64,000 bases of DNA from Oscillatoria acuminata PCC 6304 (GCF_000317105.1 NC_019693.1:3967227-4031226), one strand, 5' to 3'. Positions 14,301 through 61,285 are shown, numbered from the stretch's first letter. Notes: generated by a model from the sequence alone, not told the origin. Numbers and translations are program-made.

Positions 14301-15704
14301 TTAACTTTTAGTTGCGGTTAACTCATTAGGATGCACTGCGGAGGCGGGTAAAAAACCACCTTTTTGCAATTGAGCGACGCTGTTTTTAACTGCCGTAATG
14401 ATAAATTGGACATCATCATCACTATGAGCGGTAGATAATAATCCATTGCCACCGCGAATCATTACCCCTTGATAAAACAGGTGATAAGTGAGTAATTGCA
14501 TCGCCATTGAAGGTCCTGAATTGGTTGTATTTCCGCCGGAAACTGGGCCGAAAAGCGAGCCAAAATTGGCCATCCGAATGGGGACGGCATCCTTGATAAA
14601 GTAGGCATTTAATTCAGACACAAAGTCCGAAGTGCGTTGATTTAAACGGTCCTGAAGGGCTGACCCTTCTGCTTTGAGATGGGTTAAGACTGCTTTTGCT
14701 GCGGCGATCGCCAGGGGATGTTTGCAAAAGGTTCCAGCAAAAAAGGTGGTTTCCACAGACGGATAGGAATCATCGCCATAGTTCCAGGTTCCCCCATCAA
14801 TTCGGTCTAAATACTCGGCTTTTCCGGCAATAATTCCAATTGGCATTCCTCCCCCCACGATTTTACCATAAGTGGCGATATCCGCTTGAACTCCGAACCA
14901 GGCTTGTGCGCCGCCCGGATGAATCCGAAATCCGGTGACCATTTCATCAAAAATCAACGCAATTCCTGCTTCTTGGGTCACCTGCCGAAGTTCTTGTAAA
15001 AAGGCTTTGGGTTGCAATTCAGGACGGCGACTTTGAACGGGTTCGACGAGAACAGCGGCTAATTCGTGAGCGTAATTTTTGATAATTTCTAAGGAGTCAG
15101 GATGGTCATATTCTAAGACTAAAACATCGGCGATAAAGTTAGAAAGAATACCGGGAGAGAAGGGTGCAACATGAGGGGGAGAATCCGGGGAAGCAATGGC
15201 AAGCGTGCCATCAAAATGACCATGATAGGAACCGGAAAACAGGGCAATTTTAGGACGTCCCGTTTGCGATCGCGCTAACCGAATAGCAGTCATCACAGCT
15301 TCGGTGCCAGTATTACTAAAAGCAACTCGTTCAGTTTGGGTCATTTCGGCAATCATTTCCGCCACGATTCCTACCTCTTCAGATTGGGGACCGAGTTGTA
15401 TTCCTTTAGCGAGTTGTTCTTGAATAGCGGATTGGATAAAGGGAGGATTGTGACCGAATAAATTCACCCCAAATCCCATTGTCAAGTCTACATATTCATT
15501 ATCATCTACATCCCAAATCCGGCAACCTTGGGAGCGTTTAGCGACAATGGGATAAAAGATTTCTTTAAACGGCATAGGAAACTGACCCCCGGCCCGAATA
15601 TCGGCTAAAACAGGGCGATAGGTTTGGGCCATTTTTTTAGAAGTATGGGTGCGCTGAATGTAGTTTTGAGCGAAGGTTTTTAGATACTGTTGTTGTTCGT
15701 TCAT
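14301..15704 (-). CDS. Class III (PLP) aminotransferase, glutamate-1-semialdehyde aminomutase-like
   Basis: 467 aa, 'SGSYHGHFDG', 'IFDEMVTGFR' (class-III fold motif). Immediately downstream of the R-domain NRPS. Confidence 0.75.
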   Translation of the reverse strand: MNEQQQYLKTFAQNYIQRTHTSKKMAQTYRPVLADIRAGGQFPMPFKEIFYPIVAKRSQGCRIWDVDDNEYVDLTMGFGVNLFGHNPPFIQSAIQEQLAKGIQLGPQSEEVGIVAEMIAEMTQTERVAFSNTGTEAVMTAIRLARSQTGRPKIALFSGSYHGHFDGTLAIASPDSPPHVAPFSPGILSNFIADVLVLEYDHPDSLEIIKNYAHELAAVLVEPVQSRRPELQPKAFLQELRQVTQEAGIALIFDEMVTGFRIHPGGAQAWFGVQADIATYGKIVGGGMPIGIIAGKAEYLDRIDGGTWNYGDDSYPSVETTFFAGTFCKHPLAIAAAKAVLTHLKAEGSALQDRLNQRTSDFVSELNAYFIKDAVPIRMANFGSLFGPVSGGNTTNSGPSMAMQLLTYHLFYQGVMIRGGNGLLSTAHSDDDVQFIITAVKNSVAQLQKGGFLPASAVHPNELTATKS

Positions 15705-15785
15705 GATGGTTTGGATAGGATAATTTAAGGGGGATAACCAGCGAGAATTATATCCCGCTGGTTGGTTGAAGAATGAGGCGTTCGG

Positions 15786-18700
15786 TTAAACTCGCGCCAG
15801 TTTTTGAGTGGTTGGTAGATAACCGGAATGGACCAAATAGCTGAAGTAAGTGGTTAGCAATTTTTCACTCACGGGAGGACAGGTAATATCCGTTCCTTGC
15901 AGTGCAGTTTGAGTATAACGATCGCCGATTTCCAAGGGAGAGGAAGTGGCAGTGCGATCGCCGCTTCCGCTATCAGAGAACACCGACAGCAGGGGATAGA
16001 GTGCATTATCGGTGGAATTTGCTGCCTGTTGATGCAACTGTTCCCGCCATTGGGGATAAGTTACGGGTTCTAAGGGATAACCTTGCGATCGCACCCAGGA
16101 GACAAATTCCCCCCAAGGTAGGGTTTGGGAATTGACCAGATGGAAGTTTTTTCCCATAGATTGCGGTTGTTGGGAGAGGTGAACAATCGCCCGACTCACA
16201 TAGTCCACGGGCACCATTTCCACTTCTGTATTCCAGTTGGGTGCACTTCCGAGTTGGATACAACCTCCGATAATCCGATGGACAAAATCATTGACATTAC
16301 AAGCGCCGGTTTGACTATGACCCGTAATCCGTCCGGGTCGATAAATATTAATGGGGAACCCGCGATCGCGTGCCGCCATTAACAGTTTTTCTGCCACCCA
16401 CTTACTCTGAATGTAACCTCCCTCTAAATGGTCTATATTCGCCAGCTCATCTTCTTCTGTTGCCGTTGAATCAAACACTCCTACTGTGGAAATAAAATGC
16501 AGAGGTTTGAGATGAACTTGATTGGATAATTTCAACAAGTCTAGGGTGCTTGCTACGTTGGCTGCTTTTACCGCTGAGTAAGGATAGGTGAAATTGACCA
16601 ATGCCCCGTTATGATAAATCACATCAATTTGATGAGCAAGGGCCTGGAATTGTTCCGCAGATAATCCTAAACGCGGTTTAGCTAAATTACCGACTAGGGG
16701 AATAATTCTTTCCCCTAGGGAATTTCGCCATAATCCATAGGTTTCCAGATTGCTTTGAATCCGTTTTTTCGCTTCTGCTGCATTAGAAGCACGAACTAAG
16801 CAATAAATTTCGGTGCTGGTTTTTTGCAGCAGTTCTTCTAGCAAAAATGCCCCTAAAAATCCGGTGGCTCCCGTTAAGAGAATATGAGCCGGATTGGGAT
16901 TGAATTGGAACGTACCCAGGGGAGAAAAACTGCCATTAAGTACGATTTCTGCTTGAAAATCTACGGAACTGATATTGACTACTGGGGACTCTTGTTGAGT
17001 GGCCCGTTCAATTTGTTGAGCTAATCCGGCAACAGTTGGGACGGCAAATAAATCCCGCAAAGGAAGGTCTACGGTAAAGGTATCTCGCACCCGGGAGGAG
17101 AGTTGGGTAATCAGTAAAGAATGTCCCCCTAAATCGAAGAAATTATCCTCAATTCCGACTTTTTCCAAGCCTAAAATTTCACTCCAAATTTGGGCAATTT
17201 TCTCCTCTAAAATTGTGCGGGGGGCAACAAATGTGCCTTGCATATCCGGTCGAGAAGTATCAGGGGCCGGGAGTGCCTTGCGATCGACTTTGCCATTGGG
17301 AGTTAGAGGGAGGTGTTCTAAAATTACAAAGGCGGAAGGAACGGCATATTCGGGGAGTTTTTGTTGCAAGTATTGGCGCAATTCTCCCACCAAGTGACGC
17401 CGCTGTTGTCCCTGGAGGGGATTGTTGGTATAACGGTTCCAGGGTTGGATAGAAAGGGGGTAATTTTCATAGAGAAAATCTCCCCAACACCCCTTAATCA
17501 TGGGGACGTTATTGGGGTGGATAAATAGGGTATCGTAGCTGCCATCAAGACTGGAATTCAGCCAACTGAAGATTGTTACATACCCTAATTCTGTCCCTAA
17601 TTTTGCTAAGTTTTCCGGGTCGATACCGATGCCGGAGATGGCCTGTTTTACGGCTTTTTGTAACCCGTCAACGGTTTGAATGTCCGATGAGGTGGCAAGG
17701 AGTTGAACCGCTTTGACATCGGCTAAAACCCGCGCGTTGGGGATACTCCGGAGGGCGAGAATATTGGGCCGATCGCAGTGGAGGCGATCGCGTAGGGAAT
17801 CCAAGGTTAAATGCTCTTGCTGCCAATCCCACTCGGAATACTCAGGAACTGCCGAAATTTCCGGACCTAAATGCAGGGTGACATCATAACGAAACTTGTT
17901 CAGTTCGTTGTGATAAATCCCCTGTTTGGGTTGAATTTCTACCCGGCTAATTTGGGGAAACTGCTGCTTCAGTGCGCGGAAAAATTCCGGAGAAATTGCC
18001 AGTTCTTCCTCTTCAATTAGGCGCTTTTTGATACGCTGTTGCAGCTTATCAATGGAAAGGGAAGCGGGAGCTTGATAAAGCTCAATCGAGGTATGAAAGG
18101 CTTCTAACAGCGGGTAGCTTCGCAAGTCTCCCAGGAAAATCATCCCACCCGGGGCCACAGCATCCAGAGACCCTTCAATCACCTGCAACAGATAATCAAC
18201 GGTGGGGAAATATTGGATAACCGAGTTAATAATGACCGCATCAAAACTATGAGATTCAATGCCGTCAAAATTATCCGCCATCCGTTCTAATAACTTGACT
18301 TGCGGCAAGTTTTGACCGGGTTGGGCCAACTGCTGCCGGATATGATTGAGGGAAGCGGGGGAGAAGTCACTACCCCAATATTGGCTGCAATGGGGTGCAA
18401 TTTTGAACAGCATTAATCCCGTACCGCATCCGATTTCCAGGACGCGATTGGGCTTTAAATCCAGAATACGACTGACGGTATTGTTCACCCATTCTCGCAT
18501 TTCTAGTTCGGGAATGGGTAGGCCGGTATAACTGCTATTCCAGCCACTAATATTAAAGGTTGAATCCCACTGAGAATCGGTTTCGTTGAAGTTTTCATCA
18601 TCATGGACGACTTGCCATTGGGAAAGGCGTTCCTCAATGAGAGTAGAGACTTGGGACTCAAAATTGAACTGGGGGTTCAGAACGAAATAACTCACCAATT

Positions 18701-21819: not shown

Positions 21820-24800
21820 TTATGCTAACAGAGATTGCACCTCGTCATCGGAGAGTTGCTCTAATTCTGCTAGGGTTTGGGCCAATAAATCGCTATCGGC
21901 TTGTTCTGCTAATTTCTGAGTAATAATTAAGGAAAAATCCTCAATCGTGGGAGTTTCAAAAAAGTGCATTAACGGCACATCAACTTCAAAAGATTGACGG
22001 ACCCGTGACATGACTTGAGTGGCTAATAAAGAATGTCCCCCCAAATCGAAAAAGAAATTATCTCGAATTCCCACGCGATCGCAATTCAAAACCTCGCGCC
22101 AAATTTGAGCCAATTGTTCCTCAGTCGCCGTCCGAGGGGGCATAAAAGTATTCCCAGGTTCCAGATGTTCGGGGGTGGGTAATCCCCGGCGATCGACCTT
22201 GCCATTGGGGGTTAAGGGTAGCGCCTCTAGGACCATCACTGACACAGGCACCATATAAGGCGGCAGTTTCTCACTCAGATACTGGCGCAGTTCCTCCGCT
22301 AGTTCCGGAGTAGGCGCATCTTCGGGAACCACATAGGCGACTAATTGCTTGTGATCAGCTTGATCGCCAACCGCCACAACCACCGATGCGCGCACCGCAG
22401 GATGTTGCATCACCGTCGCTTCGATTTCCCCGGGTTCGATGCGATGTCCGCGAATCTTCACCTGGAAGTCTACACGGCTCAAAAATTCGATATTGCCATC
22501 GGGTAAATAGCGCCCCATATCTCCTGTGCGATACAGTTGTTCGCCGGTTCGAGGATGAGTAATGAAATTTTCCCGGGTCTTTGCTTCATTGCGCCAGTAC
22601 CCTTGGGCAAGTCCAACCCCGGCACAATACATTTGACCCGGAACCCAAACCGGGCGGTCTTCTAAAGCGTCATTTAAGATGTAATACCGATTATTGGCGA
22701 TGGGTTTGCCGTAGGGAATACTTTTTTGGTGGGGAGAAATCACCTTTACTGGATAATAGATGTTCCATAGGGTTGTCTCAGTAGGTCCACCAACACTGAC
22801 TAATTGCACATTCGGGGCAGTTGCTTTCAGACGACTGGGAAGGGAGACGGGTATCCAATCTCCCCCCAAAAAAGCTAAACGCAAATGAGGGAATGTAAGG
22901 TGAAGATCAGGCGTGAGATATTCGAGTAACATTTCCATCATTGCCGGGACGGAATTCCAGAGTGTCACCTGTTCCTGTTGCAGCAACTGTGTCCAATGGG
23001 CCGGATCTCGCCGCGCTGCTGCATCGGGAATCACCAGAGTACCTCCGGCAGCTAGAATGCCGAAGATATCGAAGACAGACATATCGTGATGTAGGGCGGT
23101 TAAGGCGATCGCCCGGTCGGAGGCGGTAATCTCAAAGCGCTGGTTTGTCGCAATGACCGTATTTACAACGGACCGATGGGCGATTGCCACCCCTTTCGGT
23201 AAGCCTGTAGACCCAGAGGTATAAATCACATAAGCTAAGTCATCCCCTGTATTCACCGAGGGTAAGGGTGCAGAATTGGCACTGGATAACTCTTGTCCAT
23301 CCACACAAATCGGCTGAATTCCCGCAGGTAACACCCGAGTCCCCAGGAGTTTAGACTGAGTGAGTACCTGCTGCACTCCCCCATCCTGTAACAGATAGTC
23401 GAGGCGTTCTTGGGGTAATTCCGGGTCGAGGGGTAAATAAGCCGCCCCTGCCGCTAGAATGCCCAATACAGCGACGATTTGCTCCCATCCCTTTTCCATG
23501 AATACCGCGACTAGGGTATTGGGACGCGCCCCTAACTCCCGCAAGCGATATCCCAAATGTTGCGATCGCTCATAGACTTCCCTGTAAGTGAGAGTACAAT
23601 CGGAGGTGGTGATAGCCACTTGTTCCGGCGCTTCCTGGAGGCGATCGCAAAACAACTGATACAGGGTTGTATCAGGCATGGGGGCATCGGTGGCGTTGAT
23701 GGCAGCGCGTTGCTGGAGTTGTTCTTCGGGAACCAGCGACTGGCCAATTTCCTGCCAGCCTCCCTCTCCCTCAGCGAGGCGACTGAGTAGCTGGCTATAG
23801 GCTTGAAACATCGCTTCTACCACCCCAGGGGCGAACCGATTCTCTACTGCGTCAAAGTTAAAAATTAATGCGCCGTTGCTCTCACGATACATAAAATCGA
23901 GCCAGACTTGCGGGGTTTGAGCCAGACTGTAGGCGATCGCCCCCAAGTCCACCGGGGCATCAACGGGGGTAGTTTCCTTCCCGTTCACATCTTGGGGAGA
24001 ACTGGTAAACACAATCGGCATGGTGACCCCGAGGGTATTCCCTTGATACCTTGCCAGTTCTCGTAGGACCCGCACCCCACTCACATATTGATGTTCCAAA
24101 TCTTGCCAGAGTTGCTGTTGTAGGCGCTTTGCTCTCACTTCAAAGGAGTTGGGTTCGGAAAAATCCACCTCCAACAGGGTAAAGGAGGCAAATTCACCGA
24201 TCAGGTGATTGACTTGGGGATGGAGAGGAAAGCGATCGAACCGGGGCACATTAATCGTAAATCGGGGATTTTTGCTCCAGGTGGCCAAAACTTCCGCATA
24301 GGCAGCTAGTAACAATCCGGCAGGGGTAACATTTGCTCGTGCCGCCCGGGTTTTGAGTTTTTGCCAAATCTCTGCATCTAATGTGGACCGACGGCGCACA
24401 AACTGGGAGCCCTGGGGCGCTGCGCCAGTGTTGGCAAGGGGGAGTTCTGGGGCCGGGGGTAAAGTGGGGATACGTTGTTGCCAATAAGTCAGAGATTTCT
24501 GATAAATCTCCGAAGTTTGCAGGTCTAGCAATCCTTGCACATAATCTCGGAATGACAGGTCTAGGGGAGGGAGTGTACAGTCCGGGTCTTGGTAGAGTTG
24601 GATCAGTTCTTTGGATAAGATTTGGTAACTGCGGGCATCGAAGAATATACCGTCGATACTGATATGAAGACGATAGTGGCGATCGCCTAGGTGGGAGGCG
24701 CAAATTTCGTATAAGGGCCAGCGGTCCGAGGGAATGACTTGATGAGAGAGGCGATCGCGCACCGCTTGCAATTCAGCCGCAATCACCTCCTCAGATTTGC

Positions 24801-25269
24801 CCCGTAAATCCCCGACTTTAATCTCGTAAGGGGGCAGATTTTCTAAGATTTGTTGTTGACCATCCGGCAGTACAATGGCCTTGAGCATATCATGACGCTC
24901 AATCAACCGTTGCCATGCCCGATTAAAGCGGTCTAAATCTAAATTTTGGCTCTCGGTTTCAAAATAAGTATGAATCGACACATTGCCCGATTCAAAAAAG
25001 CTATTTCTGCCAATCCAATAGGCTTGCTGCATATCCGTCAACGGAAAAGGCAGATGCCGCATTTCCGGATTTTGGGCAATTTGAGGCAGGGAATACACAG
25101 CCTCTCGTTCCTGATTTTTTGATTTATTAACCGCAGCCAATTGACCGCGCAACCGCTGGGATAATAAGGCTTGTTTCGCGGCAGAGAGTTGAGAGCGTTT
25201 TTCGGCGTTGATGGGTTCAGACATGAATTTGAGTTTACGAATAAAACAGGACAACTTTCGCAGGGACAA
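21820..25269 (-). CDS. NRPS heterocyclisation module Cy-A-T (thiazoline/oxazoline-forming)
   Basis: Cy signatures 'FPLTDMQQAYWIGR' and 'DGIFFDARS' (DxxxxDxxS in place of HHxxxDG). A domain 'LAYVIYTSGSTGLPKGV'. T domain 'FFFDLGGHSLLATQV'. The ORF begins at a TTG at 25269; the ATG at 25224 (MSEPINAEK) is more likely. Confidence 0.85.
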   Translation of the reverse strand: MSLRKLSCFIRKLKFMSEPINAEKRSQLSAAKQALLSQRLRGQLAAVNKSKNQEREAVYSLPQIAQNPEMRHLPFPLTDMQQAYWIGRNSFFESGNVSIHTYFETESQNLDLDRFNRAWQRLIERHDMLKAIVLPDGQQQILENLPPYEIKVGDLRGKSEEVIAAELQAVRDRLSHQVIPSDRWPLYEICASHLGDRHYRLHISIDGIFFDARSYQILSKELIQLYQDPDCTLPPLDLSFRDYVQGLLDLQTSEIYQKSLTYWQQRIPTLPPAPELPLANTGAAPQGSQFVRRRSTLDAEIWQKLKTRAARANVTPAGLLLAAYAEVLATWSKNPRFTINVPRFDRFPLHPQVNHLIGEFASFTLLEVDFSEPNSFEVRAKRLQQQLWQDLEHQYVSGVRVLRELARYQGNTLGVTMPIVFTSSPQDVNGKETTPVDAPVDLGAIAYSLAQTPQVWLDFMYRESNGALIFNFDAVENRFAPGVVEAMFQAYSQLLSRLAEGEGGWQEIGQSLVPEEQLQQRAAINATDAPMPDTTLYQLFCDRLQEAPEQVAITTSDCTLTYREVYERSQHLGYRLRELGARPNTLVAVFMEKGWEQIVAVLGILAAGAAYLPLDPELPQERLDYLLQDGGVQQVLTQSKLLGTRVLPAGIQPICVDGQELSSANSAPLPSVNTGDDLAYVIYTSGSTGLPKGVAIAHRSVVNTVIATNQRFEITASDRAIALTALHHDMSVFDIFGILAAGGTLVIPDAAARRDPAHWTQLLQQEQVTLWNSVPAMMEMLLEYLTPDLHLTFPHLRLAFLGGDWIPVSLPSRLKATAPNVQLVSVGGPTETTLWNIYYPVKVISPHQKSIPYGKPIANNRYYILNDALEDRPVWVPGQMYCAGVGLAQGYWRNEAKTRENFITHPRTGEQLYRTGDMGRYLPDGNIEFLSRVDFQVKIRGHRIEPGEIEATVMQHPAVRASVVVAVGDQADHKQLVAYVVPEDAPTPELAEELRQYLSEKLPPYMVPVSVMVLEALPLTPNGKVDRRGLPTPEHLEPGNTFMPPRTATEEQLAQIWREVLNCDRVGIRDNFFFDLGGHSLLATQVMSRVRQSFEVDVPLMHFFETPTIEDFSLIITQKLAEQADSDLLAQTLAELEQLSDDEVQSLLA

Positions 25270-25293: not shown

Positions 25294-28200
25294 TTAGGCT
25301 TGAAGCAGCAATCGTTCCGCTTCCTCTTCGCTTAACCCTTCCATTTCGGCAATCAATTCTTCTTCAATGGCTACCGCTAACTCAGCAATGGTGGCGGTTT
25401 CCATTAACCGCCGCATGGGGACTTTTACATCTAAGGTGGTAGCAATTCGAGACAGAACTTGGGTTGCTAACAGAGAATGACCTCCGAGTTCAAAGAAGTT
25501 ATCATTAATCCCGACTTTCTCGATTCCCAGCAATTCTTGCCAAATTTCAGCTAAGGCTTGTTCGAGGTCATTTCGGGGAGCAATATAACTAGAACTCAGG
25601 ACCGTTTCGGAATCAGTTTCTCCATCCTGAATGGTCTCAGAATGGGCTGGAAATTTGGGGAGTTCTCTGGTAGTATTTTGCCGGGTAAATTGGGGCGGAT
25701 CAATCCAGTAGCGCTGCCGTTGAAAAGGATAGGTGGGTAATGGAATGCGGCGGGGGCTTTCCTGTGGAGAGAATGCCATCCAATCAATTTCAACCCCGGA
25801 CAACCAGAGGCGGCCTGCGGTTGCTAAAAGAAAGGCTAAGTCCGATTGTTCATCCCGGGGATGACGCAGAGAACTGAGAATTGTTCGGGACGATTTGGGA
25901 TGAACTTGTTGTTGGGTTAAGGTACTCAGAGTCCATCCCGGTCCGACTTCCAAAAAAATAGAATATCCTTGGTTCAATACTTCAGTAATTCCATCAGAAA
26001 ACTGCACAGGCTGACGCAAATGATTGGCCCAATAGTCGGGGTCAATGGCCTCCTCTGGGGTGATCCAAGTGCCGGTGAGGTTAGAGATAAACGGGAGTTG
26101 CGGCGCATTTCGTCTCACTTGGGCGACGCGATCGCGAAATTCATCTAAAATCGGTTCCATCATCGGGGAATGGAAGGCATGAGAAGTATGCAGACGGCGA
26201 CAGGTGATGCCGGTTGCGGTGAGTTGTCGTTCCAATTGGGCGATCGCCTCGGTCTTGCCAGAAACCGCGCACAGAGAGGGACTGTTGATGGTTGCTAGGG
26301 AAAGGCTGTCCTCCAGGTGCGATCGCACTTCCTCCGCCGATAAGCAGACGGCCAACATCGACCCCCCCGGCAATTGCTGCATCAGTCGTCCTCGGACTGC
26401 CACTAACCCTAAGGCATCCTCAAAGGAGAACACTCCCGCAAGACAGGCAGCAACATATTCCCCGATACTATGCCCGATCGCCGCAGTGGGTTGAATTCCC
26501 CACGATTGCCAGAGTTGCGCCGTAGCATATTCAATGACAAATAAAGCCGGTTGGGTGAATTGGGTTTGTGCCAGTTGTTCCGTTGTTGCTGCTTCGCGAT
26601 CGGGTTCGGGATAGAGTAACGTCCGTAAATCTAGTCCCAAGTGCGGTAACAGCAGTTCACAAGCGCGGTCCACCCATTCCCGAAAAATCGGCTGATTGTC
26701 ATACAGTCCCTGTCCCATGTTCACATATTGCGACCCTTGTCCCGGGAACATAAACGTAACAGGAGGGTTAACGGTAGTACATTCGCCGCTAAACACAGAT
26801 TGGGGTTCCCGACTAGAAAGGGCAATTGCTGCCGCTTCCGCTGTTTCAGCGACGACCACCCGGCGATAATTAAATCCCTGCCGTCCCACTTGCAAGGTGT
26901 AGGCAACATCGGCTAAATTGCAGTCGGAATGGATTTTTAAATACTGCCCTAAATTCTGGGTTGCTTGTTCTAAGGCAGATGCAGTTTTGGCGGAAATAGC
27001 TAACAGTTTAGGGTCGCGGCTATTGGTTCTGGGTTGACTTAAAATAGGCGCTTCTTCCAAGACAACATGAGCGTTTGTTCCGCCAATGCCAAAAGAACTG
27101 ACTCCCGCCCGACGGGGGGTTTCTCCCTCTGGCCATTCTGACAGTTTGGCATTGAGATAAAAGGGACTATTCTCAAAGTCAATTTGAGGATTGGGGGATT
27201 CAAAATGCAAAGTGGGGGGAATCGCTTGATGTTCGAGGGCTAAAACCGTTTGAATCAATCCAGCGATTCCCGCAGCAGCATCCAAATGGCCAATATTGCT
27301 CTTAACTGAACCAAGTGCACAGCAGGCTTTTTTATCCGTATAGCGGGAGAAAACTTGGGTGAGGGCGGCGATTTCAATCGGGTCTCCCAAGGCGGTCCCA
27401 GTCCCGTGGGTTTGGATATAACTGACGGTTTCTGGATTAACATTAGCCACCGCCATTGCTTCAGCGATCGCCTCTGCTTGACCTGCGACACTGGGGGCGG
27501 TATAACCCACTTTTAAATGACCATCATTATTAATGGCAGACCCTTTAATAATGGCCCGAATTGTATCTCCATCTGCGATAGCATTGTCCAATCGTTTTAA
27601 GACAACAATTCCCGCGCCATTTCCGAATACTGTTCCTTGGGCATTAGCATCAAAAGGCCGACAATGGCCATCGGGGGAGAGAATACTTTCCTCTTGATAT
27701 AAATAACCCGATTGTTGCGGAACTCGAATGCTGGCAGCCCCTGCTAATGCCATATCGCATTCCCCATTCAGCAAACTTTGGCAGGCGATATGCACCGCTA
27801 CCAAGGAGGTAGAGCAAGCAGTTTGGACGTTAACGCTAGGACCGCGTAAATTCAATTGATAAGAAATCCGCGTGGGCAGAAAATCTTTATCATTGCTAAT
27901 TAAGGTTTGAAATACTCCCACAGATTCAATTAAATCCCGGTTGGGATATAAATTAAATAAGGAATAACTGCTTAATCCCATCCCCGCATATACCCCTATG
28001 CGTCCGGGGTAGGTTTCGCTATTATATCCGGCATTTTCTAGGGATTCCCAAGCGCATTCCAGCAGGATGCGATGTTGGGGGTCTGTGATAGCCGCTTCTC
28101 GGGGCGTAAATCCAAAAAATTTCGCGTCAAATTGTTCGACATTTTCTAAGATAGAACGGGCTTTGACATAGCGGGGATTTTGGATTAATTCTGGGTTTAA

Positions 28201-28383
28201 TCCCGCTGCAATCATATCCGCGTCGGAGAAAAAGGAGATAGATTCTACTCCTTGTTGTAAATTTTGCCAAAATTGTTCAACAGAATCGGCCCCGGGAAAG
28301 CGAATTGCCATACCAACAATCGCTATGGCATCTAGGTTTTCTATGGGTTCGGAAAAGTTATTCATGGGTTCTACTTGTGGCAA
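25294..28383 (-). CDS. Type I PKS module KS-AT-ACP (malonyl-specific AT, no reductive domains)
   Basis: KS 'QTACSTSLVAVH', 'HGTGTALGDP', 'NIGHLDAAAG'. AT 'GHSIGEYVAA' plus 'HAFH' (malonyl). Carrier 'FFELGGHSLLATQV'. Confidence 0.85.
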   Translation of the reverse strand: MPQVEPMNNFSEPIENLDAIAIVGMAIRFPGADSVEQFWQNLQQGVESISFFSDADMIAAGLNPELIQNPRYVKARSILENVEQFDAKFFGFTPREAAITDPQHRILLECAWESLENAGYNSETYPGRIGVYAGMGLSSYSLFNLYPNRDLIESVGVFQTLISNDKDFLPTRISYQLNLRGPSVNVQTACSTSLVAVHIACQSLLNGECDMALAGAASIRVPQQSGYLYQEESILSPDGHCRPFDANAQGTVFGNGAGIVVLKRLDNAIADGDTIRAIIKGSAINNDGHLKVGYTAPSVAGQAEAIAEAMAVANVNPETVSYIQTHGTGTALGDPIEIAALTQVFSRYTDKKACCALGSVKSNIGHLDAAAGIAGLIQTVLALEHQAIPPTLHFESPNPQIDFENSPFYLNAKLSEWPEGETPRRAGVSSFGIGGTNAHVVLEEAPILSQPRTNSRDPKLLAISAKTASALEQATQNLGQYLKIHSDCNLADVAYTLQVGRQGFNYRRVVVAETAEAAAIALSSREPQSVFSGECTTVNPPVTFMFPGQGSQYVNMGQGLYDNQPIFREWVDRACELLLPHLGLDLRTLLYPEPDREAATTEQLAQTQFTQPALFVIEYATAQLWQSWGIQPTAAIGHSIGEYVAACLAGVFSFEDALGLVAVRGRLMQQLPGGSMLAVCLSAEEVRSHLEDSLSLATINSPSLCAVSGKTEAIAQLERQLTATGITCRRLHTSHAFHSPMMEPILDEFRDRVAQVRRNAPQLPFISNLTGTWITPEEAIDPDYWANHLRQPVQFSDGITEVLNQGYSIFLEVGPGWTLSTLTQQQVHPKSSRTILSSLRHPRDEQSDLAFLLATAGRLWLSGVEIDWMAFSPQESPRRIPLPTYPFQRQRYWIDPPQFTRQNTTRELPKFPAHSETIQDGETDSETVLSSSYIAPRNDLEQALAEIWQELLGIEKVGINDNFFELGGHSLLATQVLSRIATTLDVKVPMRRLMETATIAELAVAIEEELIAEMEGLSEEEAERLLLQA

Positions 28384-28427: not shown

Positions 28428-28566
28428 ATCTCAATTTTGCCTACCAACCGAATTGACCTCTCCCCCCTACCCCCCTCCCCTGCAAGGGGAGGGGGAAATT
28501 TATGTCTTTCTCCCCCTTCCCTCGTAGGGAAGGGGGCTGGGGGGTTAGGTCTCTTTTCAAAATTGA
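28428..28566. repeat. MITE-like element copy ('gacctctcccccctacccccctcccctgcaaggggaggggg...cccccttccctcgtagggaagggggctggggggttaggtctcttttcaaaattgagatc')
   Basis: Same family as 150-330, 51000-51150 and 63225-63430. Its right end supplies the last codons and stop of the decarboxylase gene. Confidence 0.65.
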
Positions 28567-30188
28567 GATCCTCCCAAATTCAATTGGGTAGCGAGGGCAA
28601 TTTGGTCGTCTAATACCGCATCGATATCGGCTTCAGTGGTGAGGGGATTGGCAAGGGCGGCCCGTAATGCCACGATCGCCATCGGTCCATATCGAGTGGT
28701 CTGAGTAATCGTGCGGGCGATAAACGTTTTTCCCGCGTGACGTTGGGCTTTTTGTAGCTGTTCGTTGACTAAATCAATGGCTTGATTTTGGGTTTCGGTT
28801 AACTCTCCTTTAGCGACAAATTCTCGCAATTGTTCGGGAATGTAACGATAAATCAGCAGATTAATTTCCGGTTCGGCTAACAGTTCAAATTCCGGACTTA
28901 AGCGAACCTGTTCAGCCATATACTGAGTTTTGCGAATCCCTTCATCAATTAAAAATTCATAGCCTTTCAGCCCGATCGCGTGCAAGCCAGCGTGCAGAAA
29001 CAGGGACATAGCAGGGCGCGACCCTTCTAGCGATCGCTGACCCAAATCTGCCGACCCTTCCCGGACTGTATAACAGGCGTGTTTTTCGATTGCTTTTGCC
29101 AGTTGGGGGTTCTGGAACATCACCATACCAATTCCCATCGGTGCATACAGTTGTTTGTGAGCATCGATTGTGACCGAATCCGCCTGTTCAATTCCTGCTA
29201 ACTTATGGCGATGTTGTTGGGAAAAGATTAACGGTCCTCCCCAAGCGGCATCAACGTGAAAATGTACCCCCGCTGCTTGGGCGATCGCTGCCATTTCTTC
29301 TATGGGGTCGATTCCCCCTGAGTCGGTGGTTCCGGCAATGCCAACAATGGCGATAATATGTTGCTTTTGGGCGCGACATTCGGCAACGGTTTCCCGCAGG
29401 CAGTCCAAATCAATTCGGTTGTGGCGACTGGCAGGAATTTTAATTAATCCTTGACTGCCTATTCCTAATAAATCCGCTGCCTTTTCAAAAGAATAGTGCA
29501 TCAAACTCGACCCGATAATCACTTGTCCTTGGTATCCATAGAACTCCAAAGCAGCAGCTAACCCTTCTTTTTCAATGCCTTTAAAATCACCCTTCGGCCC
29601 CAATGAGCTATTACGGGCGCACCAAATTGCGGTGAAATTAGCGCTAGTTCCCCCGGAAACCACCATCCCCAGAGTGCTATGGGAATTTTGCAGATGGTAG
29701 TCGTAAAATTCATCGGGAAATTGATACAGCGATCGATGTAAAATGCCTAACGCTTGGCGTTCATAAGGGGTAAAGGCTTTCGCGGTTTCTGTCTTCACCA
29801 AATTTTGATTCAATGCCGTCATTAGTTTAGCGAGGGGACGCATAAAATGAGGCAATGCTGAGGTCATGTGACCGATAAAACGAGGAGATGAAGTATGAAT
29901 AGAATGGGGAATGAGGGTTTTTGTTAAACTCTCCAAGTAAGTATCAAAACTTGAGGCATCATCTGGGAGGTGAAACTCCTGAAATTGAGCCATCAAATCA
30001 GGAAGCTCAATGTCGCTGCTGGCTTCAATTTGGCGCAAAAATTGATAGGCAATTTTTAAAATTTGTTGATCAACATTTTTTTCCCAGTTTTCCGCCTGGG
30101 GTGAGGGGTCAAAGAGGCTGAGGATAGTCCCTTCAATAGAAGGATTCCAAGTCTCAATAGAGGAATTAACGGGATGAATTTGAAGCAT
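28557..30188 (-). CDS. PLP-dependent group II amino-acid decarboxylase (glutamate/DABA decarboxylase-like)
   Basis: 543 aa, 'HVDAAWGGP', 'DAHKQLYAPMGIGMV' (PLP lysine region), 'SGGTSANFTAIWCARN'. Confidence 0.75.
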   Translation of the reverse strand: MLQIHPVNSSIETWNPSIEGTILSLFDPSPQAENWEKNVDQQILKIAYQFLRQIEASSDIELPDLMAQFQEFHLPDDASSFDTYLESLTKTLIPHSIHTSSPRFIGHMTSALPHFMRPLAKLMTALNQNLVKTETAKAFTPYERQALGILHRSLYQFPDEFYDYHLQNSHSTLGMVVSGGTSANFTAIWCARNSSLGPKGDFKGIEKEGLAAALEFYGYQGQVIIGSSLMHYSFEKAADLLGIGSQGLIKIPASRHNRIDLDCLRETVAECRAQKQHIIAIVGIAGTTDSGGIDPIEEMAAIAQAAGVHFHVDAAWGGPLIFSQQHRHKLAGIEQADSVTIDAHKQLYAPMGIGMVMFQNPQLAKAIEKHACYTVREGSADLGQRSLEGSRPAMSLFLHAGLHAIGLKGYEFLIDEGIRKTQYMAEQVRLSPEFELLAEPEINLLIYRYIPEQLREFVAKGELTETQNQAIDLVNEQLQKAQRHAGKTFIARTITQTTRYGPMAIVALRAALANPLTTEADIDAVLDDQIALATQLNLGGSQF

Positions 30189-33590: not shown

Positions 33591-36500
33591 TTAGTTCAAT
33601 TCGGAACGCTTCACCTGCCGTCCCTGACGCGATGCCCGGGCGATCGCTGGTACTTTCACCGGGGCTTGTCCCTGGGCGACTGCTTCCCCCAATTGGGCGA
33701 TCGTTGTGGCTTCAAATAGGGTTTTTAGGGGTAATTCCACCTGAAACACTTCCCGGATTCGCGAAATCAGTTGGGTTGCTAACAATGAATGTCCCCCCAA
33801 TTCAAAGAAGTTGTCATACAGCCCAATCCGCTCAATTCCTAGCACTTCTGACCATAATTCAGCGAGTTGCTGTTCTAGGGCTGTGCGCGGTGCCACCCAG
33901 GTTTCCTGGGGTCCGGTGAAGTCCGGTTCTGGCAGTGATTTGCGGTCAATTTTGCCATTGGGAGTCAGAGGCAGGGTCTCTAATTCCACGAAGGCAGTAG
34001 GCACCATGTAGGCTGGTAATTTGGTTTTTAGAAACCCTTTTAAATCGGGGAAAATTAGCTCGGTTGAGGCTTTCACCCAATAGGCGACAAGACGTTCCTC
34101 CCGCAAAGTTACCACCGATTGCTGGACTTGGGGATGTTGTGCGAGGACTGCTTCAATTTCCCCCAACTCAATGCGATAGCCTCGGAGTTTGACCTGGTTA
34201 TCGATGCGTCCTAGGTAATCGATATCGCCGTTGGGCAGATACCGCACTAAGTCGCCGGTTTTATACAAACGTTGGCCGGGTTCGTCAAACGGATTCTGGA
34301 TGAATTTTTCAGCCGTTAATTCGGGACGGTTGAGATATCCCCGGGCCAATTGAACACCACCGATGTAGAGTTCGCCTTTAACGCCGATGGGGACGGGTTG
34401 AAGACTGGGGTCTAAAATATAAATTTGGGTGTTAGCAACGGGACGCCCGATGGGAACGATGTTTAGCGGGCTGGCGCGATCGCACTCCCAGAAGGTGACA
34501 TCCACCGCTGCCTCGGTTGGACCATAGAGGTTATGTAATTTGGCTCCCAACCGAGCCAAAAAGCGATCGGCCAGTTCCTTTGGCAGTGCCTCTCCACTGC
34601 AAAATACTTGTCTGAGACTGTGGCAATTTTCAAGACCCCGCTCCTCCAAGAACACCTGGAGCATTGAGGGGACAAAATGAACCGTAGTAATCTGACTCTC
34701 GGCGATCAGCTTGACCAAATAAGTGCTATCTTTATGCCCATCGGGTTGGGCAACAATCAGCCTTGCTCCCGTTAACAACGGCCAGAAAAACTCCCATACG
34801 GATACGTCGAAGCTGAAAGGAGTCTTCTGGAGAACGCGATCGCTTGCCGTTAACTCATAGCTATCCTGCATCCAGAGCAAGCGATTACAAATTCCCCGGT
34901 GGGTGTTCATCGCTCCTTTTGGCTTTCCTGTAGACCCGGAGGTATAAATTACATAGGCTAAGTTGTCCGGTTCAATCCCACTGACGGGATTCTCATCGCT
35001 TTGGTGAGCAATGGCTGACCATTCCGTATCCAGGCACAATACAAGCGCCTGATTTTCTGGAAGCTCAGACAGCAGTTGCTCGGTGGTCAACAGTATCGGC
35101 ACCTGAGAATCGGACACCATGAACTCCAAGCGTTCCGGTGGATAGGAGGGGTCTAACGGCACATAAGCGCCACCGGCTTTGAGAATGCCCAACAGTGCGA
35201 TTACCATTTCAACGGAGCGATCGATACATAGACCGACTAACCGCTCTGGCTCCACACCCAATCCCTGTAAGTAATGCGCCAACTGATTGGCTTTGGCATT
35301 CAGTTGGCGATAAGTGAGATGCACTCCTGCAAATTCTACCGCGACTTCCTCGGGAGTCAGTTCGACTTGTGCCTCAAATAACTGATGCAGGCAGGCCGTT
35401 TGAGGATAATCTGCCTGGGTTTGATTCCACTGTCCGAGTAACTGCTGTTCCTCGGTAGGAGTCAACAAAGGCAGGTGAGAAATCGGGGTTTCTGGGGCGG
35501 TGGCAACGGCCTCCAGCAAGGTTTGCCAATGTCCCTGCATCCGTTGAATGGTGGCAGGTTCAAATAAATCGGTGTTGTATTCCCAGGTGGCTTGCAGTCC
35601 GCTCTCGGTTTCTCGCACATACAAACTTAAATCGTATTTTGCCGTACCATTGCGATGTTCTAAGGGTTCCAGGGTCAGACCCGGTAATTCCAGGGGAGTG
35701 ACGGGGGCATTCTGGAAGATAAACATCACCTGGAACAAGGGCGAACGACTCAAATCCCGTTCAGGCTGTAACGCTTCTACCAGCTTTTCAAAGGGTAAGT
35801 CTTGGTGTGCATAAGCGCCAAGGGTGACATCTCGCACTCGGGTCAGCAGTTGGGAGAAGCTGGGACTGTCTGACAGATTCGTTCGTAAGACAAGGGTATT
35901 CACAAAGAAGCCGATGGACTGTTCTATTTCCCCGTGGTTGCGGTTGGCAATGGGAGAACCGACCAGAATATCTTCTTGTCCACTATAGCGATACAGCAGG
36001 GTTTTGAATGCTGCCAACAGGGTCATATACAGAGTAACCCCTTGCCGCCCCGATAGCTGCTTGAGTGACTCACTCAATGGATAAGGAAGGGTGAGAGATT
36101 CGCTGTTCCCTCGGAAGGTTTGGACTGGGGGACGGGGTTTATCCGTAGGCAACTCCAACACCGGCAGACTGCCTCCGAGTTGCTGTTTCCAATACCCCAA
36201 CTGGGTTTCCAGAACCGCACCTTGTAACCAGTTTTTCTGCCACAGGGCAAAATCCGCATACTGGATCGGAAGTGCAGGCAGGGGAGAGGGCTTACCTTCA
36301 GAAAATGCCGGATATAGGGCGGCAAGTTCGCGAATTAGGACCGCTGTAGACCAGCCATCGGAGACAATGTGATGCAGGGTAAACAGCAATACCCATTCGG
36401 TTGCACTCAATTGTAACAGTTGACCGCGAAGGAGGCGACTGCTCTCTAAGTTAAAGCCTTGACCCGCTTCTGCTTCTGTAAGACGTCGCACTTCTGCCTC

Positions 36501-39500
36501 GCAATCCTCTGGGGATAAGCCTTGTAGGTCAATCACCGGGAGGGTAAAGGGAGTTGCGGGGATGATCTGCTGCACCGGATGTCTGTTAACCGTGACAAAT
36601 TGAGTTCTCAGGATTTCGTGACGGCGCACAATTTCCGTGAAACACTGTTCTAAGGCGGTAGGGTTCAGTTTTCCGGTAATTCTAACGGCGCGAGGCAGGT
36701 TGTATGACGGGCTGCCCGGGTCGAGGCGGTCCAAAAACCAGAGTCGTTGTTGGGCAAAGGATAGAGGCGCAGTTTCACCCCGAGAGGTGGGAACAATGGC
36801 GGGAATTTCTAAGCCCAGTTCCGCCTGAATTGCCTGTTCGATCCGTTCGGCGAGAGTGCCGAGGGTGGTGGCTTCAAAGAGGGTTTTCAGGGGTAATTCC
36901 ACCTGGAATGTCGCCCGTAATCGGGAAATTGCCTGGGTTGCCAGCAGGGAATGACCTCCGAGGGCAAAAAAGTCATCGTGGATGCTGATCGCCGGGCAAT
37001 GTAACAGTTCCGCCCAAATCCCGGCGATCGCAGCTTCCACAGGGGTGCTTGGGGCGATATACTCCGTCGCTGTTGCTAACTGAGTATCCGGGGTAGGGAG
37101 GGCGCGGCGATCGCGTTTACCGTTGGCAGTCAAGGGTAAGCTATCCATCGCCACAAATGCTGTCGGTATCATATACTCCTGCAACCGTTGTGCTAGAAAC
37201 TCCCGAATTGCCTCAGTGTCCAGCTTCCCAGATGGGACTATATAGGCGACGAGGCGGGGGTTTCCCGGTTCATCTTCTCGCAATGTGACCACCGTTTCGC
37301 GGACTGTGGGATGCTGGGCGAGGACTGTTTCAATTTCCCCTAATTCAATCCGGAACCCGCGAATTTTCACCTGTTCGTCTACCCGTCCCAGAAATTCAAT
37401 GGTCCCGTCGGGGAGATAGCGGGCGCGATCGCCGGTTTTGTAGAGGCGATTTTCTGGGGAAGTCTGGAAGGGATTCGGGATAAATTTATCTTGAGTGAGT
37501 TCGGGACGGTTAAGGTAACCCCGGGCTACTCCGGCCCCTCCGATATACAATTCTCCGGTGACACCAATGGGGACAGGTTGCTGATGCTGATCCAGGATAT
37601 AAATTTGGGTATTCGCAATGGCACTCCCCAGAGGGACTGTTTTCGCGTAGGGAGGATGAGTTTGGGGTACTTCGTAAGTCAGGACCCCGACGGTGGTTTC
37701 TGTGGGTCCGTAATGGTTGAAAATCCGGCAATTGGGAGCCGATTCGCGGATGGTGGCGACTGCCTCCCAAGTTGCGGTTTCCCCACCCAGGACCAAACAA
37801 TGCCGAGGTAGGATATCACTGGGGCGATCGCCGCCTAACAGGGCCATTAAATGACTGGGGACAATTTTCAGGCAGTCGATGGGATGCTGCCGGAAGTATT
37901 CTGCAAGTGCCTCGGGGTCTGAGGACCGCATTTTAGAAATAATATGCAAAGTTCCGCCACATAATGCTGGAAAAATTACTGTATTTCCCAAGTCTGCTGA
38001 CAAGGTGGAGACTAAGGCAAAACTCCCGGGAGTGGGTAAGTTCAGCCGGTCCTGAATGGCGTAACAATAATTCAAAATTTGCCGATGGGCGATCGCCACT
38101 GCTTTCGGTTGTCCAGTCGAACCGGAGGTAAACAGAATATAGGCTAAGTTGTTTTCCGTCGCACTTGGGGCTAAATTTTCGGCACTTTCTCCCTGGAGGG
38201 TATCTCCATCCAGACAGACAAAGGGACAGTTTGGTAAGCGATGGGAGAGGCTTTGTTCTGTTACCACAGCCACAGGCTGAATGTCCTGCAAGCGCAGGGA
38301 TAGAGCTTCCAAAGGCAATTCGGCATCTAAGGGGAGATACGCGCCCCCGGCTTTGAGAATCCCCAGCATGGCGACGAGGGAGAGGTGAGAACGATGGGTC
38401 AAAATGCCAACCACGGCATCGGGACCGACTCCCAATTTCTTTAGGTAATGTGCCAGTTGATTGCTTTGTTCATTTAACTGGCGATAGGTGAGGTGGGTTT
38501 CTTCAAAGACTAAGGCGATCGCATCCGGACTATTGTTAACTGCTTCCTCAAATAGTTGATGCATCCCCTCTTTGATGGGGTAAGACTTCTCGGTTTGATT
38601 CAGTTGAAAGAGAAACTGCCGCTGGGGTTCCGGGAGAATCGGTAACTGAGAAATACCTTGAGTGGGATGGGCGATCGCCTGAATTAGCAGAGTCTCGAAT
38701 TGTTCGGCTAACTGTTGGATATAGTCGTTTGAATAGTGATTTTTATCATAACTTAATTCAGCCTTTAATCCATGAGTCAAAGCTGTAACAGTTAATTTAA
38801 CTTGAAATGGCTCACTGTGGGTAAACGGCTGAGTAATAGAAAAGGAAATTCCATCCACCGACTGAGGTCCCGGGAGGCTGATAAACTCAAATCCGATGGG
38901 AAACCCTACCCGATGGAATTCTAAGGACTCGCTATGAATATAGTCTTGCCATTCCACCGATTCAGTTAAAGATTTCGTCGTTAAATTCACGGCTTTTTTT
39001 AGAGACAATTCTCCCGCCAGATGCAAACGAACCGGCAGGCAATGGCTCAATAATCCAAAGACTGATTCTAATTCTTCATAATCATCGCGGATATTATAAA
39101 TCGTCCCCACAATAAGTTCTGATTCCCCTGAGATTCGATGGAGGAGAATCTGCCAACAAGTCAGCAACAAGACGGCAGGAGAAATTTCCCACTGTTGCGC
39201 TAAGGTTTGAAGTTGGGTTCCCCCTTGAGAGTCAATCGTCCAGGAATAACTCTCGGGAGTAAAAGGTTCCTGAATAGGGGTGAGGATTTGTAACGGCAGT
39301 TTCATCCGTTCTAAGGCAGAGAAATCTTGTTGTTGCCAATAGGCTAAACCAGATTCCACTTCCCCTGCTTCCCCTAATAATTCATGTTGCCATTCGGAGA
39401 ATTGAACATATTGCACCCCCTCTTCCTCGGAGGCATCATCCAATTGACCGGAATAGGCGAGACTAACTTCGGCTACCCAATTTTTGAGAGTGCCATTATC

Positions 39501-48663: not shown

Positions 48664-48722
48664 TCTCCGATTCTAGTAAATGCACCCCTAAGCGGGGTAA
48701 ACGTAGCGTATAAAGTTCTGTA

Positions 48723-49775
48723 TTACAAGTTTTGGGAAAACAATTCTGACATCCCGACAACGATTTTCCTGGGTCCTGAAAAGGGTTGTCGTCCGTGGGC
48801 TGTCAGCATATTATCTAACATTAGAATATCTCCGGTTTCCCAGGGAAATAATACCGTTTCTGCCCGATAAGCGGCGCGGATTTCTTCTAAAACCTCGGGT
48901 TCAATGGGTGACCCGTCTCCATAATAAGTATTATGGGGTAAATCCTCTTCAGAAAATGCCTTTAATAACGCCTCTCGAATCGGGGGTTCCAAGGTGGATA
49001 CATGGAAGAATACCCCATGATTAAACCAGACAGCTTCCCCGGTAATAGGATGGTGGGCGATCGCCTGCCGGACTTGACGGGTACGCAGGCGATTTTGCCC
49101 TTTCCATTCCCACTCTATCCCATTTTTGCGACAAAAATCTACCACTTGGGAGGTATTTTCTGTTTGGAATACAGTTTGCCAGGGCAACCCAAACCCATCG
49201 CCAAAATTGCGGACATACATCACCTGTTTTTCAGCAAAACGGCGGCGAATTTCAGGGGGAATCCGTTGCAATAACTTGCGGGTGTCGGCGATAGGAGTTT
49301 CGCCTCCTTCTGTGGGGGGAATCAAACAGCAAAAGAAGATTTTTAAGGGCCAACTGGCTGCATAAGAGTTCTCGCTATGGAGAAAAATGGTTTGATTCGC
49401 GGGATGATCCGTCGAGGTATAAATATTACCATTGACGGGACTCCGAGGGGATGAGCGATCGCGATAATCCAGCAACTCCCCCGATACGGTTTGAATCAAC
49501 TCCTCAAACTCTTCCACATCCCGAATCCCAAAGTTTCGGAATAGAATGCCCCCATGTTTTTGCAACGCCGTTTGAATAAAATCTCGGTTTGTATTCGCCC
49601 AAACGGTTAAATTCACCCCCTCGATTTGGGGCTGAATTAACAAAGGTAAAGACTGGTCCAAAAACATCGGCTTGGCTTCGACCAATTTGGTCGTTTCCAC
49701 GCTAACGGAACGCCGTTTGACGGCACCGAATGTCGTTAGATTAGGAGTGGAGGAGTCTGAAAATTTCATGACCAC
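48723..49775 (-). CDS. Standalone TauD/TfdA-family Fe(II)/2-oxoglutarate dioxygenase (SyrP-like amino-acid beta-hydroxylase)
   Basis: 350 aa, paralogous to the fused C-terminal domain of the 2913-aa NRPS ('GGILFRNFG', 'HSENSYAASWPLKIFF', 'GGETPIADTRK', 'LDNMLTAHGRQPF'). Confidence 0.8.
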   Translation of the reverse strand: MVMKFSDSSTPNLTTFGAVKRRSVSVETTKLVEAKPMFLDQSLPLLIQPQIEGVNLTVWANTNRDFIQTALQKHGGILFRNFGIRDVEEFEELIQTVSGELLDYRDRSSPRSPVNGNIYTSTDHPANQTIFLHSENSYAASWPLKIFFCCLIPPTEGGETPIADTRKLLQRIPPEIRRRFAEKQVMYVRNFGDGFGLPWQTVFQTENTSQVVDFCRKNGIEWEWKGQNRLRTRQVRQAIAHHPITGEAVWFNHGVFFHVSTLEPPIREALLKAFSEEDLPHNTYYGDGSPIEPEVLEEIRAAYRAETVLFPWETGDILMLDNMLTAHGRQPFSGPRKIVVGMSELFSQNL

Positions 49776-49782
49776 AGGAGGG

Positions 49783-58185: not shown

Positions 58186-58186
58186 G

Positions 58187-61283: not shown

Positions 61284-61285
61284 TT

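Follow-up and report, generated by a model that had tools for sequence, protein, structure and literature searches.

Predicted aldehyde release and transamination at the end of a cyanochelin-like siderophore assembly line in Oscillatoria acuminata PCC 6304

The last synthetase and the aminotransferase encoded behind it

We analyzed 64,000 nucleotides of DNA from Oscillatoria acuminata PCC 6304 (GCF_000317105.1 NC_019693.1:3967227-4031226; this whole stretch is hereafter called the window), in which a nonribosomal peptide synthetase (NRPS) assembly line ends in a thioester reductase (R) domain and is followed by a gene for a class-III, pyridoxal 5′-phosphate (PLP)-dependent aminotransferase. 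In the 1958-aa translation of the last NRPS, whose start codon is probably the ATG at 21566, Pfam placed a Condensation domain at aa 77-522, an AMP-binding domain at aa 547-902, a Methyltransf_12 domain at aa 1075-1175, inserted in the adenylation (A) domain, and a PP-binding domain at aa 1487-1550, followed by NAD_binding_4 at aa 1596-1826 (1.5e-72). A thioesterase (TE) domain was absent from this domain map. C-terminal to the last carrier (T) domain, the TIGR01746 model, "thioester reductase domain", scored 378.5 bits against a cutoff of 213.35 (aa 1593-1949). The NAD(P)H motif TGATGFLG lies at aa 1597-1604 (nt 16851-16874) and YIQSKWVAEK at aa 1750-1759 (nt 16386-16415), the catalytic YxxxK being YIQSK at aa 1750-1754. 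Both TGATGFLG and YIQSK align with the R domain of MxaA (4U7W), which is the nearest solved structure (E 3e-104). The MxcG model was the second-best NCBIfam match of the whole NRPS, far below its cutoff (905 versus 2300 bits).

The specificity code of the terminal A domain, extracted like all other codes against GrsA, is DTENIGAIAK. Because the closest A domains in related clusters carry Lys-type codes (DAEDIGSIVK and DAEDIGSVVK), the terminal residue is probably basic and Lys-like, and the embedded methyltransferase (MT) probably N-methylates it.

The aminotransferase (467 aa) is encoded on the same strand, its gene starting 81 bp past the NRPS stop codon. A scan for promoters and terminators between the genes returned sites no commoner than expected by chance and no terminator-like site between the NRPS and the aminotransferase. 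The protein scored 190.3 bits against Aminotran_3 (PF00202; gathering threshold 30.5), with FDEMVTGFR at aa 252-260 and the PLP-lysine motif YGKIVGGG at aa 279-286; the PLP lysine K281 and the pyridine-nitrogen aspartate D253 are invariant in 32 homologues. HemL was considered as its identity and rejected (TIGR00713, 278.7 versus a cutoff of 527.3; NF000818, 282 versus 398), and since the scores fall below these equivalog cutoffs, the database name "GSA aminomutase" is an over-annotation. The closest solved relative is the AMT domain of MycA (6KFM; E 1.2e-154, 518.6 bits), whereas the best GSAM structure reached only about 190 bits. No kinship with diaminobutyrate transaminases of the Dat, EctB or RhbA type was found, the best NCBIfam matches being HemL-like and all below cutoff. 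Sequence comparison places the enzyme in the AMT/GSA-like branch of the class-III aminotransferases. It lacks the architecture of an embedded AMT domain, being a free-standing open reading frame behind the R domain, 9.6 kb from the only polyketide synthase (PKS) module of the window.

The initial annotation had described a last NRPS that closes with an R domain of the short-chain dehydrogenase/reductase (SDR) type instead of a TE, an N-methylating domain, and a class-III PLP aminotransferase as the next gene, and our data bear out all three. The type II TE gene behind the aminotransferase is an additional gene that it did not mention; a type II TE gene is likewise found downstream of the aminotransferase in the related loci L004, L009, L014, L093 and L094.

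Aminotransferases and aldo-keto reductases behind related R domains

Relatives of the aminotransferase were collected by a scan at one genome per species, from which the 80 best loci were retained, and the domains of each locus were mapped by tblastn with the window's own domains as queries. The closest relatives, at approximately 61-67% identity, are free-standing, all cyanobacterial, and encoded immediately behind an NRPS with a T-R end. Two more distant proteins, in L017 (59%) and L046 (53%), are likewise free-standing cyanobacterial aminotransferases after T-R, so that this arrangement is seen in L001-L007, L009, L010, L013, L014, L017 and L046. It also occurs on annotated plasmids, namely in Gloeothece citriformis PCC 7424 and on Acaryochloris marina pREB1. 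Relatives at approximately 60% identity or less are mostly AMT domains embedded in KS-AT-ACP-AMT-C proteins, including Bacillus loci of the iturin family. None of the 80 best loci is myxobacterial.

In a neighbor-joining (NJ) tree, the window aminotransferase fell within a clade of 25 stand-alone cyanobacterial aminotransferases (bootstrap 153/200), separate from the embedded KS-AT-ACP-AMT-C domains, and 21 of the 25 sampled members lie directly downstream of a T-R terminus. A bipartition that also includes the non-cyanobacterial stand-alone aminotransferase of L060 was unsupported (7/100). Rivularia PCC 7116 was not among the 120 best aminotransferase matches with either query, which is weak evidence of absence.

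The pairing of R domain and aminotransferase is found with different terminal A domains. An Asp code terminates 11 such loci (L002, L003, L006, L009, L010, L013, L014, L081, L090, L093 and L094), a Val code L007 and L017, a Lys-like code L083 and L091, and the code DSALIAEVWK L004 and L005. This independence of the terminal amino acid fits a release cassette rather than a precursor-supply enzyme. In L081 the aminotransferase gene overlaps the NRPS gene (aminotransferase start 14391, NRPS end 14407), and in at least nine loci with the pairing only NRPS domains were detected in the 10 kb upstream.

A small SAM-dependent MT of approximately 250 aa adjoins the aminotransferase in 15 loci (for instance at 11462-12226 in L002, 11434-12180 in L009, 15902-16648 in L081 and 9590-10477 in L084), and one protein, P0038 (747 aa), is a fusion of MT and aminotransferase. 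This neighborhood and the fusion would imply a free amine product to be methylated, as proposed for the Dmaq unit of anachelin and for leucinostatin. The small MT of the relatives had no tblastn match in the window at 1e-5, and the window's embedded MT is unrelated to it.

Aminotransferases of the same clade occur in other settings as well, such as the salicylate-type Acaryochloris cluster L084 and an MT-aminotransferase-tyrosinase locus of Plectonema cf. radiosum LEGE 06105 (L022), where positions 4900-12322 encode MT, aminotransferase, MFS transporter and tyrosinase. This gene set is similar to the one postulated for the anachelin Dmaq unit, and the 12.5-kb contig carries no NRPS. In Nostoc sp. 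FACHB-110 (L059, 4374-12204), a KS-AT-ACP-AMT-TE protein is followed by a stand-alone aminotransferase and an MT, and L008 (1267-12374) contains KS-AT-KR-ACP-TE, a TauD-like protein, a cupin, MT, aminotransferase, GNAT, type II TE and acylase.

Eight R-terminated NRPSs were sampled through the R-NRPS, independently of the aminotransferase. Immediately behind the R domain, five of them (L081, L090, L091, L093 and L094) have an aminotransferase and a small MT. The remaining three, which belong to cyanochelin-like clusters, have an aldo-keto reductase (AKR, PF00248) in this slot (L088, 10420-11625; L089, 10417-11631; L092, 10413-11564; compare the aminotransferase of L014 at 9920-11371), and no sampled R-NRPS was without one or the other. 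The R domains of L014, which has the aminotransferase, and L088, which has the AKR, are 85% identical, and the two partner types are intermixed across the R-domain tree. That two different aldehyde-consuming enzymes alternate in one slot behind R domains so nearly identical is the best evidence obtained here that the R domain hands over an aldehyde, and the presence of either partner in the slot behind the R domain suggests aldehyde release in the relatives.

On its plasmid, Gloeothece PCC 7424 carries a cluster that is complete from the receptor gene to the ABC genes. The assembly line is made up of FAAL and NRPS domains alone, lacks KS and AT domains altogether, and closes with a Lys-like A-T-R, behind which the aminotransferase is encoded; its terminal A domain is the closest to that of the window (57% identity). 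As this cluster has no PKS, the aminotransferase there cannot act in trans as the AMT of a PKS module. Characterized clusters with the R domain alone yield alcohols. The whole cyanochelin B plasmid (AP017310.1) contains an R domain, 52% identical to that of the window, and no homologue of the aminotransferase or the AKR, and cyanochelin B ends in ethanolamine (PMC12628792). The terminal gene for cyanochelin C, ccsL, has unrelated genes behind it, and the product is reported to carry DHABA (2,4-dihydroxy-3-aminobutyrate), a reduced beta-hydroxyaspartate (beta-OH-Asp), at its C-terminus.

The surrounding siderophore cluster

The features of the window are listed in Table 1. In transcription order, the cluster encodes FAAL-ACP-C, a stand-alone TauD, an NRPS of the organization C-A-T-C-A-T-C-TauD, a two-module NRPS, a C-A-T module, a PLP decarboxylase, a KR-less KS-AT-ACP module, a Cy-A-T module, the C-A(MT)-T-R NRPS, the aminotransferase and the type II TE.

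Table 1. Features of the siderophore cluster in the window, with positions counted from the first nucleotide of the window
Feature	Position	Strand	Evidence or specificity code
Type II (editing) thioesterase, last gene of the operon	13335-14111	minus	Pfam Thioesterase 6.2e-46
Stand-alone class-III PLP aminotransferase, AMT/GSA-like subfamily	14301-15704	minus	Aminotran_3 6.2e-56
Last NRPS, C-A(N-MT inserted)-T-R	15786-21662 (ORF)	minus	1958-aa translation, Pfam
R/TD domain of the last NRPS	15816..16886	minus	TIGR01746, NAD_binding_4
PCP (T) domain of the last NRPS	17013..17204	minus	Pfam PP-binding 5.2e-17; LGGHSL at 17115-17132
MT core inside the terminal A domain	18072..18497	minus	Methyltransf_12, _25, _11; VLEIGCGTG at 18417-18443
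Cy-A-T heterocyclization module, preceding the terminal module	21820..25269	minus	Motif DGIFFDARS; code DMFNFGVLWK (unassigned)
PKS module KS-AT-ACP without KR (alternative ketone source for the aminotransferase)	25294..28383	minus	
PanP, PLP-dependent aspartate 1-decarboxylase	28557..30188	minus	TIGR03799 632 bits, cutoff 606.1
C-A-T module, 1105 aa	30242..33559	minus	Code VDWVVSLADK (beta-Ala type)
Upstream part of the assembly line	33591..53475	minus	
2113-aa NRPS, Asp and Ser modules	33591-39932	minus	First A, DLTKVGHVGK (Asp); second A, DVWHFSLVDK (Ser)
2913-aa NRPS, C-A-T-C-A(Gly)-T-C-TauD	39922-48663	minus	First A, SSRDVAMGIK (unassigned); second A, DILQLGLIWK (Gly)
Stand-alone TauD hydroxylase	48723-49775	minus	
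FAAL-ACP-C	49783-53475	minus	
Divergent transport cassette	53938..63100	plus	

The divergent transport cassette encodes an MFS exporter, an AMIN-domain TonB-dependent receptor (domains AMIN, Plug and barrel), a periplasmic binding protein, two FecCD permeases, an ABC ATPase and a sucrase/ferredoxin-like protein, and it identifies the cluster as one for a siderophore. Together with this cassette, the FAAL start, the Asp-specific A domain, the TauD-type hydroxylases and the Cy module are all present, and by its gene content the cluster is of the cyanochelin-like, beta-OH-Asp lipopeptide siderophore type. Two regions of the plus strand, 55546-58185 and 62123-63100, match the cyanochelin import cassette that a preprint (10.64898/2026.07.30.741596) describes as specific to cyanobacteria. 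A literature search found no paper on this O. acuminata cluster.

Within the assembly line, the Cy-A-T module carries the heterocyclization motif D-x4-D-x2-S in the form listed in Table 1, in agreement with the thiazoline- or oxazoline-forming neighbor of the terminal module postulated by the initial annotation. The KR-less PKS module feeds straight into this Cy module, an uncommon junction that would leave a beta-keto/enol methylene beside the thiazoline or oxazoline. Two TauD hydroxylases stand against one clear Asp code in the window. At the other end of the line, FAAL-ACP-C ends in a C domain and the next NRPS opens with another C domain, the stand-alone TauD gene lying between them. In the first A domain of that NRPS (near aa 467-824), the conserved Asp235 is missing (sequence IAFSSSVRQL), which suggests that the substrate lacks a normal alpha-amino group.

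The decarboxylase is not RhbB-like (162 versus 900 bits), and a role for the aminotransferase in supplying beta-Ala or diaminopropane together with this neighboring enzyme was considered and rejected, the decarboxylase being a PanP that scores above its cutoff next to the beta-Ala module. Because PanP exceeds its equivalog cutoff and adjoins that module, beta-Ala supply is accounted for without the aminotransferase. The gene placed equivalently in the cyanochelin C cluster is ccsR. In the preprint on that siderophore it is described as a "transaminase" that supplies beta-Ala; it may be a PanP.

Outside the cluster, the window contains tandem paralogues of an MgtE-type magnesium transporter on the plus strand (5122-6657 and 6773-8173; MgtE_N, CBS, MgtE), with a Na+/H+ exchanger fused to a Usp domain upstream of the pair (2811-4457).

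Release of the product, alternative readings and known systems

Overall, we propose a putative mechanism for the release of the product. The full-length chain would be held as a thioester on the last T domain and is predicted to begin with a fatty acyl group and an unassigned residue X, to continue through Gly, beta-OH-Asp, Ser, beta-Ala, a C2 ketide and a thiazoline or oxazoline, and to end in an amino acid that is N-methylated and probably basic. In a two-electron step, the C-terminal SDR-type R domain would reduce this thioester with NAD(P)H and free the peptide aldehyde, which the co-transcribed class-III PLP aminotransferase would then turn into a primary amine (-CH2-NH2). The downstream type II TE would merely edit mis-primed carriers. 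In the relatives, the small SAM-dependent N-methyltransferase would methylate the newly made amine. Among the readings that we weighed, aldehyde release by the R domain followed by transamination to an amine terminus is the best supported by the sequences, and we consider it probable. The initial annotation had arrived at the same order of events, which is now backed by the synteny of R domain and aminotransferase, the alternation of aminotransferase and AKR, and the PKS-free Gloeothece cluster. Its further remark that such an end would be unusual for a siderophore was overstated, since the R-aminotransferase cassette, often joined by an N-methyltransferase, is widespread in cyanochelin-like clusters and has been proposed for anachelin (PMC4247773). 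On this proposal, the gene in the slot behind the R domain would decide between an amine and an alcohol terminus, and the alcohols formed by the characterized R-only clusters of cyanochelins B and C count in its favor.

However, several observations weigh against aldehyde transamination and lend some credit to other roles for the aminotransferase. The bootstrap value of the stand-alone clade is just 76% and comes from a simple NJ analysis. The nearest characterized homologue, the MycA AMT domain (6KFM/6KFU, E about 1e-154), acts on a carrier-bound beta-keto thioester, not on a free aldehyde, and a search for residues separating the stand-alone aminotransferases from the embedded AMT domains returned only one conservative, uninformative I/V position, so that no specificity-determining residues split the two forms. 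Moreover, the KS-AT-ACP module of the window has neither a KR nor an AMT domain and would leave a ketone. The aminotransferase might therefore work in trans, aminating the beta-keto thioester on that module while the R domain releases an aldehyde or alcohol unaided, as would also suit the embedded state of most relatives of lower identity. We regard this as very unlikely: the gene lies far from the PKS module and immediately behind the R domain, members of the stand-alone clade go together with R termini, the Gloeothece cluster and the loci with exclusively NRPS domains upstream have the pairing where no PKS partner was seen, and exchange for an AKR in the same slot fits an aldehyde substrate, not a beta-keto-ACP. 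Just as unlikely is a role in precursor supply, in which the enzyme would leave the released chain untouched and make beta-Ala, a diamino acid or whatever is activated by the A domains with the unusual codes DTENIGAIAK or SSRDVAMGIK. The assignment of ccsR to beta-Ala supply, the unassigned codes of these two A domains, and the clade members L008 and L059, which have no R domain within 10 kb and thus also count against a role in release, are in its favor. The initial annotation had named the supply of a beta-amino precursor as the case that would overturn its proposal, but PanP beside the beta-Ala module makes such a supplier unnecessary. Furthermore, the aminotransferase keeps its place behind the R domain where the A-domain sets are ordinary (Gly, Asp, Val, Ser and Orn), and it is unrelated to the Dat/EctB/RhbA-type enzymes that would provide diaminobutyrate.

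The remaining doubt concerns the R domain itself. Its nearest solved structure is that of MxaA, whose terminal R domain is a four-electron, alcohol-forming reductase, and the R domain of cyanochelin B evidently reaches the alcohol alone; both facts speak against a free aldehyde as the main product. Four-electron reduction to the alcohol, or intramolecular capture of the aldehyde, for example as a cyclic imine with a basic side chain, might thus dominate and reduce the amine to a minor congener. The resemblance of the terminal A-domain code to Lys codes would suit such a capture. According to a citing paper, MxcG carries out two-electron as well as four-electron reduction (Li, Weissman and Muller 2008), and myxochelin B, a minor congener beside myxochelin A, provides a parallel. 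We nevertheless judge this outcome unlikely. The conservation of the aminotransferase, its intact catalytic residues and the overlap with the NRPS gene in L081 argue for a main-line role of the enzyme, and the dedicated AKRs in the same slot suggest that these R domains release aldehydes.

If aldehyde release and transamination take place as proposed, the structures expected for the product of the window and of dozens of related clusters would change from the cyanochelin alcohol to a primary amine, methylated in the relatives. We lean slightly toward a broader view, in which the stand-alone clade is an offshoot of the PKS-embedded AMT domains that has been redeployed as a portable release cassette, the slot behind the R domain setting the C-terminal charge of the siderophore in cyanochelin-type clusters. 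An aminotransferase in this slot, with or without an N-methyltransferase, would give a cationic amine, and an AKR or no partner a neutral alcohol. This broader view would imply a large uncharacterized family of amine-terminated cyanobacterial siderophores, in which the O. acuminata variant would end in an N-methylated, reduced and aminated basic residue. With a cationic end, the siderophore would associate differently with membranes and be recognized differently by receptors, and the photochemistry of its beta-OH-Asp iron complex would change as well. The alternation would provide a simple genomic rule for predicting the terminus, for which Aliterella atlantica CENA595 (aminotransferase) and Tolypothrix sp. 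FACHB-123 (AKR), with terminal NRPSs 81% identical and predicted termini of 3,4-diamino-2-hydroxybutanoate and DHABA, respectively, form a natural test pair. For enzymology, stand-alone relatives of the MycA AMT domain may accept free aldehydes and could serve reductive-amination cascades. The mechanism will not surprise a specialist; the useful and testable points are how far the cassette has spread, that it apparently descends from AMT domains of PKSs, and the switch between aminotransferase and AKR, which should predict amine or alcohol termini.

The chemistry itself is already known from myxochelin B, so that the window would provide a new example and not a new mechanism. There, the R domain of MxcG acts together with the stand-alone class-III aminotransferase MxcL, and the outcome is myxochelin B (cited in PMC3870968 and PMC4946873). 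In both systems the intermediate aldehyde would be passed on to either an alcohol or an amine. As in the myxochelin clusters of Stigmatella and Myxococcus, a siderophore NRPS of the window ends in an R domain and a PLP aminotransferase is separately encoded, and, as in the C-A(Lys)-T-R protein MxcG, the terminal A domain is closest to Lys-type domains. In contrast, the window belongs to another phylum, its predicted product is a lipopeptide with beta-OH-Asp and not a bis-catecholate, and its terminal module has an embedded MT. By analogy, it would represent reductive-amination release of the MxcG/MxcL type, a likeness of gene arrangement. The model for anachelin in Anabaena cylindrica PCC 7122 (Calteau et al. 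2014, PMC4247773) invokes Red, AmT, MT and a tyrosinase-like enzyme for Dmaq. This scheme, itself a prediction, shares with the window a cyanobacterial siderophore NRPS-Red and an aminotransferase in a sequence that continues with an N-methyltransferase, but the window lacks a stand-alone MT and a tyrosinase, and its chelation would rely on beta-OH-Asp and not on a catechol.

The same logic of thioester to aldehyde to amine has been proposed for leucinostatin (LcsA-R, LcsP and an MT), where N-methylation follows, and for zeamine, with release by a reductase and a transaminase. The release of fragin includes a reductase step, and the last gene of the ham cluster, hamG, is an aminotransferase that probably adds the amino group. 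Unlike the window enzyme, however, the transaminases of these systems belong to unrelated or distant families (LcsP is an Aminotran_4 protein), and the hosts and scaffolds differ. Literature searches combining "cyanochelin" with "aminotransferase", and for reductive release with a transaminase in siderophore NRPSs, found nothing, and the papers on lusichelin and fatuamide are silent on both reductases and transaminases.

With the MycA AMT domain of mycosubtilin and iturin synthesis (PDB 6KFM, 6KFR and 6KFU), the aminotransferase shares a fold-type I, GSA-like PLP core, and it is about 52% identical to its counterparts in the Bacillus loci L033, L035 and L038. That domain is fused between an ACP and a C domain, whereas the window enzyme is free-standing, follows an R domain and falls in a separate clade. 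Taken as a whole, the cluster most resembles those of cyanochelins A, B and C (Rivularia PCC 7116, Leptolyngbya NIES-3755 and Myxacorys), with which it has in common the FAAL start, the Cy module, the terminal R domain, TauD-type Asp beta-hydroxylases in stand-alone and NRPS-fused form, and the cassette with the AMIN-domain receptor. The characterized cyanochelins end in alcohols (ethanolamine or DHABA), unlike the product predicted here, and to their common plan the window adds the aminotransferase, the pair of PanP and beta-Ala module, the KR-less ketide module and the N-methylating terminal module.

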